A stretch of 40,220 nt of DNA, taken from a virus. Taxonomy: Duplodnaviria; Heunggongvirae; Uroviricota; Caudoviricetes. Location of the stretch: IMG/VR virus record IMGVR_UViG_2671181134_000016; one strand, 5' to 3'. Positions 1-37,681 of the stretch are shown piece after piece (positions within the stretch are counted from its first letter, which is position 1; each line of letters begins with the position of its first letter). Below the pieces are notes generated by a model. The model was not told where the DNA came from and ran no database searches. It worked only from the letters and a program-made list of their open reading frames with translations. Position numbers and translations under genes: made by a program.

Positions 1-567
1 ATGATCGAAAAAATTCTTGCAACTCCTGAGTTAACTGCTTTACTTCGTGATGAAGTCGAAGAAAATAATGTGTTTGTCAAATTGGATGCTGATTTTTATC
101 AGGATAACGGAAAACTAGATTGCCAAAAAATAATCAATCTTTCTGTGGATTCATATTATAATTCGCTTCGGTTGCCTATTACACCTCCTTCACCAGATAA
201 TATTTTAGTTATTAAGCGAGGGGATAATCGTTTTGCACTTTACATAATTGAGTTGAAGAATGTTGCAAAAGTTTCCCGATTAGATGAAGAAAATATACGA
301 TGCAAGTATAAGACAGCAGTAGACGATTTCATGCAAGAGCGTTTTTCTGATAGTTTTTTAAAAGAAGATGTGAAAATTACTGATTTTAATATATGGATTG
401 TATGTAATAGATTCTCTTTTTTAGGGAAAGAACTTACTGATGAACAGTATGCAAAAAAAGTAATTAATAATGGGGTTATGGAAAAGTTACTACTATCCAA
501 ACCTTATAGGTTTAGAGGTAAAATATCTCCTATAACTTTCCAGTTAAGTGGCTCTGAAGTGTGTTAA
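1..567 (+). CDS. Hypothetical cargo protein between prophage end and int; possible PD-(D/E)xK nuclease-like motif (PDNILVI ... IIELK). May be N-terminally truncated by the window edge.
   Basis: 188-codon ORF, AT-rich relative to phage core genes; D...ELK spacing reminiscent of restriction-endonuclease-like fold; no family recognised. Confidence 0.5.
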   Translation: MIEKILATPELTALLRDEVEENNVFVKLDADFYQDNGKLDCQKIINLSVDSYYNSLRLPITPPSPDNILVIKRGDNRFALYIIELKNVAKVSRLDEENIRCKYKTAVDDFMQERFSDSFLKEDVKITDFNIWIVCNRFSFLGKELTDEQYAKKVINNGVMEKLLLSKPYRFRGKISPITFQLSGSEVC

Positions 568-33645: not shown

Positions 33646-34308
33646 ATGCATCGTATAGACACGAAAACCGCGCAGAAGGATAAGTTCGGCGCGGGTAAGA
33701 ACGGTTTTACCCGTGGTAACCCCCAGACTGGCACACCTGCCACCGATCTGGATGATGACTACTTTGATATGTTGCAGGAAGAACTCTGCAGCGTGGTGGA
33801 GGCATCCGGTGCCAGCCTGGAGAAGGGGCGAAACGACCAGTTGCTTACCGCGCTTCGTGCTCTGCTGTTAAGCCGCAAGAATCCGTTTGGTGATATCAAA
33901 TCGGATGGCACGGTGAAAACGGCTCTCGAAAACCTTGGTTTGGGAGAAGCGGCAAGACGGGGGGTGGGAACAGGGGAAAATCAGATACCGGACATGGCTT
34001 CATTTAGTGGGGTGAGGGATTATTACGGAAAACAACTTTTGCCAGGAGGGTTGATACTTCAGTGGCTGACGATTCCATCAAGTGCAGCAGCTAAAGCTGT
34101 AACACTGAATAATGGTAATTATCAGCTGTCAGGCTATAAATGGCCCCAGTCATTTGGTGTCCTGTTTGCTGTGTTTGCCACAAAAGTTTCTGGCTCGACT
34201 AACGAAGCATATGCAATCTCAGTTAATCGTCACTCTACCGATGTAATTGTCACCTGGAATGCCCGTAAGGCTGATGATGTCCACATTTTAGGAATTGGGA
34301 AATTATGA
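33646..34308 (+). CDS. Tail fibre protein: constant N-terminal part (to about 33948) fused to the currently expressed variable C-terminal part
   Basis: GGAG Shine-Dalgarno; the inversion crossover site lies inside the gene at codons 97-101. Confidence 0.8.
33935..33949. repeat. Left inversion crossover site (TTGGTTTGGGAGAAG)
   Basis: Perfect 15-bp inverted repeat with the right site; embedded in the tail fibre gene. Confidence 0.65.
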
Positions 34309-34724
34309 AAATGAAATGGTCCCCATCTGTTCAGGGATTTTTCTCTGAAAATAACAGCGATATTCCCGATGATGCTTTCGATATTGAAGATGCTCTTTAT
34401 TATGAACTTATGAATGGTCAGAGTACGGGGAAAATTATTATCAATAACCCGGATAACTACCCTGTACTTACTGAATATCCAGCGAAGACACAGGAACAGG
34501 AAATAGCTGAAGCGGAGGGAATGAAAAGTATACTTATTGAACAGGCCAACGAATACATGAACAGTAAGCAATGGCCTGGTAAAGCCGCTATTGGTCGTCT
34601 GAAAGGTGAGGAACTGGCGCAATATAATTTGTGGCTGGATTATCTGGACGCACTGGAACTGGTTGATACCTCCAGTGCGCCAGATATTGAATGGCCTACG
34701 CCTCCGGCAGTTCAGGCCAGATGA
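34305..34724 (+). CDS. Tail fibre assembly protein (Tfa, expressed orientation)
   Basis: C-terminal conserved Tfa motif (...WPTPP...); coupled to the tail fibre stop. Confidence 0.8.
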
Positions 34725-35298
34725 CATCCGGCGCGGTGCTGGTATCTGTTGCCGTCACCGAGTCAATGTAATCCAGCACAGCGTTAAGTCGGGTGTTTTC
34801 TGTCTGCGTCAGCTTCCGCCCGGCCTGTAATTTCAGTTGAATCAGACTGATGGAAGCCATTGCAGCATCAATCAGCGACTGGCGCTGTGCTTCTGCCGCT
34901 TCTACTGCGGCGCTATGCTGTGCCTCAGTATCGGTCACCCATTTCTCACCATCCCATTCATCGTATGGCGTTAACGGGGCGATAGTGGTTGTATTTTCAG
35001 GATAATCACCCGGAGTTGTGATTTCTTTCGATTCTCCTGTTTCGGTGCTATAGATGATTTCACCGCGATGATCTGGTACATATTCCCATGAGTTAAAATC
35101 TGCAGAGCGGCAGATTGCATAACCAGCTTTGTAGGTGCCTGGAGCATCTAAACAGGAATATGCCGGAATGCCGACACCAACAGCAAGATATTCAGTTGAA
35201 GCTGAAATATACTCCCGACTCATGACGTCAAAGTTATAAACAGTAATTTCTCCTGCCATAGTGGCAATTAATTCACTGTTTAATTCTGCGTTATTCAT
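34696..35298 (-). CDS. Alternative tail fibre assembly protein (Tfa', silent orientation)
   Basis: C-terminus ...[12 protein letters not shown] is Tfa-like; convergent with Tfa. Confidence 0.75.
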   Translation of the reverse strand: MNNAELNSELIATMAGEITVYNFDVMSREYISASTEYLAVGVGIPAYSCLDAPGTYKAGYAICRSADFNSWEYVPDHRGEIIYSTETGESKEITTPGDYPENTTTIAPLTPYDEWDGEKWVTDTEAQHSAAVEAAEAQRQSLIDAAMASISLIQLKLQAGRKLTQTENTRLNAVLDYIDSVTATDTSTAPDVIWPELPEA

Positions 35299-35783
35299 TA
35301 TGCAGCCCTCACAATATAGTTAAAAGCGACATTTCGTGGGCGTGTTTCATTCGCACCTGCAGGTTTAGTCGTTGCCGCAACAACACCACCCTCTGTAATA
35401 GCCGGGTTGGGAATTGGGTAATTATCGAAGTCAATGGCTGGAGACAGGGGCGTGATTTGTTTTAAAATCGTGGTGCCTGTAAAACTTCCCAGAGTCTGGT
35501 CGTTAGTTCGTGAAGTCCAGATTCCCCAATAGTGGTTATGACTGACAATCGCACCGTCCTGAAGCGTTAATAATCCCCTTCCGTTATCCACTCCACGTCC
35601 GTCATCCCAGCCACGAATAAACTCACCGCGTAAATCAGGTAATTTATTTGTCGGATAAGCCTTTGCCAGTTCCGGGTATTCTTCAGCAGAAAAAGCTGCT
35701 CCGTTGCATTTCAGCCAGCCTGTTGGCGGAGTGGCTGAAGGCCACGGAACAGGCACACCAACGGGTAATGCTGAGCCTTCTCC
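35298..35783 (-). CDS. Alternative tail-fibre variable C-terminal segment (Sv'), lacking its own start; fused to the constant part upon inversion
   Basis: The frame continues from the crossover repeat (GLGE) with no ATG; the track's 'M' at 35786 is a TTG. Confidence 0.7.
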   Translation of the reverse strand, partial: GEGSALPVGVPVPWPSATPPTGWLKCNGAAFSAEEYPELAKAYPTNKLPDLRGEFIRGWDDGRGVDNGRGLLTLQDGAIVSHNHYWGIWTSRTNDQTLGSFTGTTILKQITPLSPAIDFDNYPIPNPAITEGGVVAATTKPAGANETRPRNVAFNYIVRAA

Positions 35784-35791
35784 CAAACCAA
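35777..35791. repeat. Right inversion crossover site (reverse complement of TTGGTTTGGGAGAAG)
   Basis: Inverted copy immediately upstream of the invertase gene. Confidence 0.65.
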
Positions 35792-35857
35792 CCTTTTAGA
35801 AAATGCAGTTGTTTCGTTCAGGTGGCATGATTCCGGCTTTTTACAGGGCTATTTATC

Positions 35858-36406
35858 ATGCTTATCGGCTATGTACGCGTGTCAACAAATGACCAGAACA
35901 CGGCATTGCAGCGAAACGCGCTGGATTGCGTAGGATGTGAACTGATATTCGAAGATAAGATCAGCGGCAGAAGTCTGACAGACCGGGACTGAAGAAGGTG
36001 CTCAGGACGCTATCAGAAGGCGATACGCTGGTGGTCTGGAAACCGGATCGTCTCGGTCGCAGCATGCGGCATCTTGTCGTTCTGGTGGAGGATACGGGAA
36101 AGAGGGATTAACTTTCGCAGCCTGACCGACAGCATAGACACATCTTCGCCAATGGGGCGTTTTTTCTTTCACGTTATGGGCGCTCTGGCTGAAATGGAGC
36201 GAGAACTGATTGTCGAACGCACTAGGGCGGGCCTTGCCGCGGCTCGTGAAGAAGGGCGGATCGGTGGGCGTCGTCCAAGGCTAACAGATGAGCAATGGGT
36301 GCAGGCAGGAAGATTGATAGCTGCTGGGGAATCACGGCAGCGCATAGCGATCATCTATGATGTTGGCGTATCGACGCTGTATAAAAAATTCCCGGTTAAT
36401 TGTTAA
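35858..36406 (+). pseudogene. pin: Pin/Gin/Hin-family serine DNA invertase disrupted by two compensating frameshifts (-1 near 35969-35977, +1 near 36091-36094)
   Basis: N-terminus MLIGYVRVSTNDQNT and C-terminus RERGINFRSLTDSIDTSSPMGRFFFHVMGALAEMERELI are in the same frame; the middle (DRPGLKKVLRTLSEGDTLVVWKPDRLGRSM) is in another frame; stop at 35990 in the start frame. Confidence 0.8.
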
Positions 36407-36560
36407 CAGATGCCGCAGTCTCGCCATATGCAAGAGCGGACTGCGGCAGGCAACAGAGTGTTCATGCCCACATTGCCGACAGAAAGGATAGCAGAGAAAA
36501 GAGAAGGTGGAATTGTCAGGTGTTTCACCATTAATTCACCATCGGCAAATTGCAGGTATA

Positions 36561-36590
36561 AAAAAACCAGCCTTAAGAGGTTGGTTTTAT
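36561..36590. terminator. Putative bidirectional terminator after the invertase region
   Basis: A-run, imperfect stem CCAGCC/GGTTGG, T-run. Confidence 0.4.
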
Positions 36591-36720
36591 TGGGGAATTT
36601 TGGTCGCACGAGAGAATTTGAACCTCCGCCCCCTGACACCCCATGACAACAAGCAATAATATGTATAACATGGGTTTTTACATGACATATAATAAATTAA
36701 TTTTTGTAAAGGGAAATCTT

Positions 36721-37681
36721 ATGGATTCAAGAAGATATTTGCATACTGTAATATTAATTGCTGGTATAGTATTTATATGTATATTGGTTATATACTTAAT
36801 TTATCCAAAGGTGATATTTACTATCAGTGATAACTATTTAAATCCATTGGTTTTAATAGCGATGGTTTTGTCGTTTTCCTCAGTAGTGCTGTTATTTATA
36901 AAGTATTTAAATAAGGATATTGGCAATGATCATTCTAAAAAAGAAACAGCACAGAATTATGCCATTGAACTGAAGAAAGAACTAGAAAGAATAAATGGGA
37001 GACTTGAGGCAATAGATAGGCCCATTGCTGGAAAATCCAGTGATATCATACTAAGTGATGCGGAGAGAGCAGATTTTATTGAAAGGGCGAAAAAGAAAAT
37101 TGCAGGTGAAATGATAATTAATGCATCAGAAAGTTTAAAAAAAGAGATGCAACACATTAAAGAACAGTTAAGTATTAATGAGCATTATGAAGATATGGTT
37201 TACAGAATCAAAAAAGAAATAGATAGACTTAACAGGCGAGGTGGAGCTAACCTTGGCATTGGTGCTTCAATCGCTTTTTTTGGAATAGCGTATCTGGGTT
37301 ATGTTGTTTCAAAACAAACTGTCACGACCGATGTAATTAATTATCTGATTCATATGTTACCTCGAATTTCTTTTGTATTAGTTATAGAGGTTTTTGCATA
37401 TTTTTTTTCTAAAGTTATATAAAAATGGTTTTGATGAGGTAAAATATTTTCAAAATGAATTGACAAATATTGAGGCAAAAGTATTGGCCATTAAATTTTT
37501 AAAAGATGTTAAAAATGAAGATTTAATGGCTGAAGTTATAAAAAATCTAATGACAACAGAGAGGAATTTTATATTATCAAAAGGACAGACGACTGTGGCA
37601 TTAGAAAAAGAAAAAATCAAGGGGCTTGAAGATAAAAATGCTTTATCTATTATAAAGGAGTTAATTAAGTTAAAAAGTTAG
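36721..37681 (+). pseudogene. AT-rich membrane / coiled-coil protein of unknown family, interrupted by a +1 frame change in a T8 homopolymer (37401-37408)
   Basis: ATG at 36721 with AAGGGA upstream; 2 TM + coiled coil + 2 TM; deleting one T in the T8 run joins both ORFs into about 320 codons. Confidence 0.5.

Follow-up and report, generated by a model that had tools for sequence, protein, structure and literature searches.

Does a prophage whose own DNA invertase has been destroyed also lose the ability to exchange its tail fibres? The question is raised by a stretch of 40,220 nucleotides from a tailed virus of the Caudoviricetes (IMG/VR record IMGVR_UViG_2671181134_000016), which we refer to in full as the window. 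Near its right end, at positions 35858–36406 on the plus strand, lies a Pin/Gin-type serine invertase pseudogene, recognized from its ORF layout, Pfam matches, homologue alignments, and NCBI annotation, and next to it lies an invertible segment that carries alternative tail-fibre ends. A preliminary description of this locus proposed that two compensating frameshifts had inactivated the enzyme and had probably locked the phage in one host-range state. That the pseudogene is frameshifted is already known, since NCBI flags it as such, and the kind of system to which it belongs is well known. We therefore ask here whether the lesions are real and disabling, and whether the death of the gene has in fact frozen the switch.

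Results and Discussion

The start frame of the invertase gene, which begins MLIGYVRVSTNDQNT, extends from 35858 to 35992 and ends in a TGA stop at 35990–35992. The middle part of the protein, DRPGLKKVLRTLSEGDTLVVWKPDRLGRSM, is found in a second frame (ORF 35998–36111), and the start frame is open again in an ORF at 36074–36406, being used from approximately 36093 to the stop at 36406. Against the Pfam Resolvase profile (145 positions), the three pieces match successive parts (2–49, 46–91, and 87–144); their E-values lie between 1e-8 and 5e-18, all scores are well over the curated thresholds, and the last piece also matches HTH_7. These matches are far above chance. The ORF layout and the succession of profile parts agree with one another and bear out the description of a gene split over two frames with a stop at 35990. 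When the pieces are joined conceptually, the repaired invertase aligns without gaps over residues 1–181 to the Mu Gin structures 3UJ3 and 4M6F (E = 1.6e-89 and 4e-88), and the YVRVSTNDQ motif falls within this alignment. By homology, the locus has the composition of a small serine recombinase, that is, a Resolvase catalytic domain with an N-terminal catalytic Ser and a C-terminal HTH_7 domain, and the gapless Gin alignment together with the two Pfam matches supports its assignment to the Pin/Gin family. The Q..RL motif of the DNA-binding domain is also common to Mu Gin and the repaired invertase; we take its residues to be the counterparts of Hin Gln151, Arg154, and Leu155. These three Hin residues have been called unique to invertases (PMC3798978). 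What the locus does not contain is an uninterrupted, translatable invertase ORF.

The lesions were placed by reference to the closest intact gene, that of strain APEC20/16 (L003), which is 86% identical at the nucleotide level. The first is a 1-nt deletion between 35972 and 35973, within the interval near 35969–35977 where it had been expected. The second, initially read as a 1-nt insertion near 36091–36094, is actually a 2-nt deletion between 36092 and 36093. Alignment to intact relatives thus upholds the split gene but replaces the −1/+1 reading with −1 and −2. The net change is −3 rather than zero, giving 182 codons instead of 183, and the deletions are functionally uncompensated because the start frame meets its stop 17 nt after the first one. 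All 120 intact homologues that we aligned are single-frame, and none has a gap at either deletion site. In addition, the gene carries a Leu63Pro substitution (CCG, 36043–36045) in the conserved WKLDRLGRS stretch of the catalytic domain, at a position where Leu is invariant in 120 of 120 homologues; Lys142Arg likewise deviates from an invariant column of this alignment. A premature stop, a frameshift at each of two deletions, and a proline in place of an invariant leucine together leave the gene, as judged from its sequence, inactivated, and in this respect the preliminary description was right. The locus reads as the non-working relic of a member of the Gin/Cin/Pin/Hin family.

Single-base indels are common as sequencing or assembly errors, which would leave the gene intact in the organism. 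The same allele, however, is present with 100% identity over 651 nt in three complete E. coli chromosomes, those of strains S19-651, STEC17-183, and ARS-C101, and in all three the NCBI RefSeq annotation is a "frameshifted" recombinase pseudogene. NCBI draft assemblies, ENA metagenome assemblies, and Logan assemblies supplied 19 further loci with the dead allele. Together with the three complete chromosomes, these 19 assemblies give 22 loci other than the window, every one of which has both deletions. Twenty of these loci cover the 549-nt gene in full, with 0 mismatches; the other two begin at 35872 and are free of variants over the portion that they cover. The appearance of the same two deletions in 22 independent loci from varied laboratories, sources, and assemblers leaves the error reading with practically no probability, and it bears out the earlier judgment that random sequencing error was an unlikely cause. 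Many strains have the dead allele by common descent. C-terminal ORF fragments of the allele occur on 54, 26, and 17 contigs, counts that may overlap.

No intact version of the allele was found, the closest gene in complete E. coli genomes having 86.5% nucleotide identity. At the protein level, a search of 5.8 billion clusters listed representatives of which the best intact one is 91% identical; the 90%-identity clusters were judged by these representatives, and their members were inspected in part. Eight guessed repairs of the invertase were looked up, and none is on record. The phage collection contains no near-identical phage; the P2-like phage pro483 comes closest, matching 68% of the query (segment plus invertase) at ~90%.

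The middle segment of the gene keeps an open, family-like frame, and the gene is 100% conserved across loci, both of which would be expected if active invertase were still made, either through two programmed recoding events or as a split protein. Such a scheme requires two independent shifts, −1 and then +1 or −2. Inspection of 35966–35976 and 36085–36096 revealed no slippery heptamer, which leaves both shift sites without the element by which we would recognize a programmed frameshift. The early stop and the proline at an invariant position count against this reading as well. As for the conservation, the 100% identity of the invertase block extends into ~2 kb of downstream DNA, which argues for a young shared block rather than for selection on the invertase gene. 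On these grounds we consider recoding extremely improbable.

The surroundings of the gene identify the window as a full-length relative of the K-12 prophage e14. It encodes an integrase, large terminase, portal, and major head protein, and also a tail sheath, tape measure, baseplate, and tail fibre. RefSeq annotation of the identical loci places the integration at icd, with an icd' copy followed by iraM, ymgK, and bluR downstream, and the right arm has the order ymfQ, fibre, chaperone, chaperone', fibre', pin; the integration site and this gene order are those of the e14 family. K-12 e14 shares this site and this order. Its crossover sites are near-identical to those described below, its segment measures 1.80 kb compared with ~1.86 kb here, and its orientation in the MG1655 reference is that of the window. 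The two elements differ in that e14 is a 15-kb remnant in K-12, whereas the prophage here is full length; in that pin here is a pseudogene, with ~80% nucleotide identity over the pin region; in cassette A; and in an ORF of 332 aa and no known function that here replaces mcrA.

Several further features were noted along the prophage. At the e14 mcrA position, an extra T at 37401 of the window, relative to most related loci, splits the 332–345-aa ORF (phrog_5157) into ORFs of 259 aa and 95 aa (36643–37422 and 37394–37681), for which neither Pfam nor PADLOC gave a match. Just downstream of the invertase, 36558–36647 contains the 3' ~48 nt of a tRNA-Pro-like gene on the minus strand; a tRNA scan found no full tRNA gene in the window. 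Exactly at this place S19-651 carries an inserted P4-like element of ~9.8 kb (primase, SSB, PerC, Icd-like; L001 from 6816), and the sequence of window positions 36599–36614 is present on both sides of it. At the left end, between icd and the integrase (window 1–567 and upstream in L025/L026), an AAA-family ATPase is encoded together with a 188-aa protein that matched no family, and the two may form a cargo or defence pair.

The invertible segment itself spans ~1.86 kb, from core dinucleotide to core dinucleotide at 33935–35791. The expressed tail-fibre gene (33646–34308, plus strand) encodes 220 aa, with PHROG tail fibre matches over residues 1–104, and consists of a constant N-terminal part that extends to the left crossover site and a variable C-terminal cassette A; the exact 220-aa protein is on record on 43 contigs. 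It is followed by the 139-aa tail-fibre assembly chaperone of cassette A (34305–34724, plus strand; Pfam Caudo_TAP, E = 5.7e-24). On the minus strand lie the 200-aa, TfaE-like chaperone of cassette B (34696–35298; Caudo_TAP, E = 8.4e-32) and the silent, StfE-like C-terminal fibre cassette B, an ORF of 162 aa (35298–35786; Pfam Collar, E = 7.6e-16). The cassette B chaperone region, which is silent in the window orientation, has 87% nucleotide identity to the K-12 tfaE region on the same strand. Inversion of the segment yields a fibre of 260 aa, as seen in S19-651 and ARS-C101, and in inverted loci cassette B forms its C-terminus. Both alternative sets of fibre and chaperone are intact ORFs with the expected domains.

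The crossover sites were recognized as the arms of an inverted repeat. The left, pixL-like site, CTCTCGAAAACC TT GGTTTGGGAGAA (33923–33948), is with its immediate context identical to the K-12 e14 left site at 27 of 28 bases, and it contains the published inverted repeat of the e14 P segment with a 15/16 match (PMC12529663). At the right, pixR-like site, TTCTCCCAAACC AA CCTTTTAGAAAA (35778–35803), the stretch CCTTCTCCCAAACCAA (35776–35791) is identical to the published e14 right repeat (PMC12529663). The repeat 33926–33949/35777–35800 contains both 26-bp sites and shows a perfect 15-nt stretch within 24 nt and 88% complementarity. The core dinucleotides TT and AA match in the inverted orientation, as they do at the ~26-bp sites of Gin/Cin/Pin/Hin systems. 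The locus thus resembles Mu Gin/G, P1 Cin/C, and Salmonella Hin/H in its Resolvase and HTH_7 domains, its 26-bp sites, and its 2-bp core, and resembles Mu and P1 also in that the switch controls alternative tail-fibre ends. Unlike in those systems, the enzyme here is non-functional, and the phage backbone is a different one.

A third cis element of such systems, the recombinational enhancer, may be present as well. Homology suggests a putative enhancer at 35879–35942, inside the 5' end of the invertase gene; its placement follows the hin enhancer sequence. The stretch is bounded by two Fis-like 15-bp cores of the form G-N13-C, GTGTCAACAAATGAC (35879–35893) and GCGTAGGATGTGAAC (35928–35942), of which the proximal one is ~90 bp from pixR. 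For comparison, the 65-bp Hin enhancer has Fis sites at both of its ends and lies ~100 bp from the near hix site (PMC3798978). Relative to intact L003 and K-12 pinE, the putative enhancer region has no indel, and the first deletion in the gene is 30 nt downstream of it. We infer that the element could still work.

With a dead enzyme and apparently intact cis elements, the state of the switch was read from the orientation of the segment, which was scored in 18 loci besides the window, each assembly reporting one orientation. In STEC17-183 (L004), the segment 33935–35800 is collinear with the window. In S19-651 and ARS-C101 (L001 and L002), it is exactly inverted between the crossover sites, with flanks that are 99.98–100% identical. 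Both orientations are thus represented, with breakpoints at the crossover sites (within the left site at that end), as is characteristic of Gin/Cin/Pin/Hin systems. In total, the window orientation is found in nine loci (the window, L004, L006, L009, L010, L019, L020, L022, and L024) and the inverted one in ten (L001, L002, L011, L015, L016, and L018, together with the sub-lineage L005, L007, L017, and L021). Both states recur on a shared background. Haplotype 1 is non-inverted in the window, L004, and L019 and inverted in L001, L011, and L015; haplotype 2, marked by 34179T, 34264A, 34732T, and a deletion at 37401, is non-inverted in L006 and inverted in L002, L016, and L018. At the level of strains, the inverted S19-651 and the non-inverted STEC17-183 are near-clonal: 2 SNPs separate them over the 12.9 kb of core genes from icd to potB, and each of the two is ~100 SNPs from ARS-C101 over the same stretch. 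Both deletions and Leu63Pro must have arisen on a single molecule, in which the segment had one orientation; it follows that the segment has inverted at least twice after the death of the invertase. For the lineage as a whole, the proposal of a locked tail-fibre switch is therefore not supported, nine and ten loci with an identical dead allele being in opposite states.

Contig ends were also tried as a sign of mixed orientation. One metagenome contig starts at exactly 35777, and several others start nearby, but the sign is ambiguous, as short-k assemblies also break for other reasons. In L016, the expressed tail-fibre gene is split into ORFs of 151 aa and 201 aa (263–1253). The sub-lineage comprising L005, L007, L017, and L021, which we term B', joins the identical dead-invertase block to tail genes that are 3–4% diverged. 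It has a different silent cassette (e.g., L017 649–2616), which encodes a 149-aa fibre end and a 147-aa chaperone, and an in-silico flip of a segment of this type gives an intact fibre of 247 aa. All four of its loci were seen in one orientation.

The switch could nonetheless be locked if the differences in orientation are older than the inactivation, or if they were recombined in from relatives with a live invertase. Recombination near the segment does occur, as the junction of the dead block with diverged tail genes in the B' loci indicates, and the single orientation of these four loci, the K-12 reference orientation of the window, and a resident gene that is certainly dead all fit a locked state. 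An older origin of the two orientations is difficult to reconcile with the identical two deletions and Leu63Pro in 22 of 22 loci, which imply a single origin on one molecule in one orientation. Introduction from relatives, in turn, has to account for both orientations sharing flank and segment haplotype, which they do twice, and for their occurrence between near-clonal strains. The dead block would have to have moved more than once into live prophages that were identical in all other respects; no such prophages are on record, and no live version of the allele or haplotype that could have served as recombination partner was found in complete genomes or among the cluster representatives listed. 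The silent cassette, moreover, is undecayed. A locked switch is on this evidence unlikely, and the intact state of both crossover sites and both cassettes likewise speaks against the argument from which it was first proposed. The strain of the window is itself in the K-12 reference (non-inverted) state and may be static if it has no helper enzyme.

If the segment has flipped without its own invertase, what flips it? No second recombinase is encoded within the 40-kb window, and because the resident invertase is dead, the enzyme must come from elsewhere. A search for a trans-acting invertase elsewhere in the genome, which had been suggested earlier as a check, gave candidates in two of the complete genomes. 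We reached the Qin-site recombinases of these chromosomes by synteny with K-12. ARS-C101, in which the segment is inverted, has an intact pinQ whose protein is 100% identical to K-12 PinQ. S19-651, also inverted, has an intact PinQ homologue of 196 aa that is 85% identical to K-12 PinQ and lies in a Qin-like prophage at ydfJ (L032 27366–27956). In STEC17-183, which is not inverted, ydfJ is occupied by another, Stx-phage-like prophage with tRNA-Ile/Arg/Arg and a SASA esterase (L033); this prophage contains no recombinase, and megablast found no pinQ-like place in the STEC17-183 genome. Besides the places located, there is one additional Pin-like place in STEC17-183 and two in ARS-C101; in S19-651, the sole other Pin-like place found by blastn is, from the matching place counts, most probably a pinH relic. 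S19-651 also has an additional lambdoid prophage, which replaces potC–potD. The inverted state is thus found in the two PinQ-bearing complete genomes and the ground state in the near-clonal one without PinQ, a link between PinQ and orientation that is drawn from three complete chromosomes (n = 3). Cross-complementation among members of the Gin/Cin/Pin/Hin family has long been established.

Trans-inversion of this very kind of segment has recently been described by Kirigo et al. (NAR 2025; PMC12529663), who report inversion of the e14 P segment in trans by PinQ, a recombinase of prophage Qin, and activity of all three of PinR, PinE, and PinQ on this segment. As in their system, the recombinase considered here would belong to another prophage and act on the same kind of segment, and two of the three complete dead-allele genomes combine intact PinQ-type genes with the inverted state. 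The difference is that PinE is intact in K-12 and dead here, in natural isolates, so that flipping would take place wholly in trans. Among the parallels that PMC12529663 cites are the action of Fin on the Hin segment and of PinE on the Salmonella H and Mu G segments; a precedent cited there, in which the invertase of one prophage controls a segment elsewhere in the chromosome, concerns flagellar phase variation, unlike the tail fibres of the present case. Our literature search for a citable statement on the interchangeability of Gin, Cin, Pin, and Hin returned nothing beyond this paper. In the same study, PCR showed a locked P segment in K-12 from which pinE had been deleted, although pinQ and pinR were still on the chromosome, and the unaided activity of PinQ and PinR may be very low without induction.

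An inversion that uses no invertase at all also has to be weighed. RecA-dependent recombination between short inverted repeats would give a product that looks like site-specific inversion, and the two crossover sites do offer a perfect 15-nt stretch within 24 nt and 88% complementarity. Repeats of 15–24 bp, however, barely reach or fall short of the length required for efficient homologous recombination. The near-equal frequency of the two states among near-identical prophages, in turn, suggests flips that are frequent relative to point mutations. Finally, no flipping was detectable in K-12 without PinE (PMC12529663). We regard the RecA route as very unlikely.

The reading that we prefer is that the window carries an orphaned P-segment switch of the e14 type, with a dead resident invertase, surviving cis parts, and occasional inversion by a heterologous recombinase in trans, and we think it probable that this is correct. 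In this scheme, the resident Pin-type invertase, which would have depended on Fis and the enhancer, was lost through the 1-nt deletion and the stop that follows it, the 2-nt deletion, and Leu63Pro. The crossover sites with their matching cores, the presumed Fis enhancer, and both cassettes would have survived, and with these parts in place the segment would remain a substrate for recombination. A heterologous serine recombinase from elsewhere in the cell would then invert it now and then. Foremost among the candidates is a recombinase of the PinQ/PinR type from a lambdoid prophage resembling Qin or Rac, and other co-resident Pin/Gin-type invertases are conceivable as alternative helpers. That PinQ-type enzymes did the flipping, and how frequently, we infer from the comparisons above.

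Conclusions

The frameshifts described for this invertase are real, widely inherited, and, to judge by what they do to the reading frame, fatal to the gene; the switch beside it has moved since. What is new, to a modest degree, is that a natural switch of the e14 type still flips although its resident invertase is dead, which agrees with the published trans-acting recombinases. A more far-reaching possibility, which we put forward tentatively, is that the state of the fibre segment in these strains is set only by a PinQ-type recombinase of another prophage. The strains would then represent a natural "pinE-null" experiment and a two-prophage circuit, possibly serving the host as a defence switch, as has been proposed for K-12, instead of the phage as a host-range device. 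In K-12, the anti-phage role has been assigned to StfE2, which blocks T2 adsorption (PMC12529663). Without the PinQ link, the locus would be an ordinary prophage pseudogene. If the link is true, wild STEC and commensal E. coli would provide independent genetic support for the recently reported control of the e14 P segment across prophages. In either case, a dead invertase beside an invertible segment should not be equated with a frozen switch, as related enzymes elsewhere in the genome can serve in its place.
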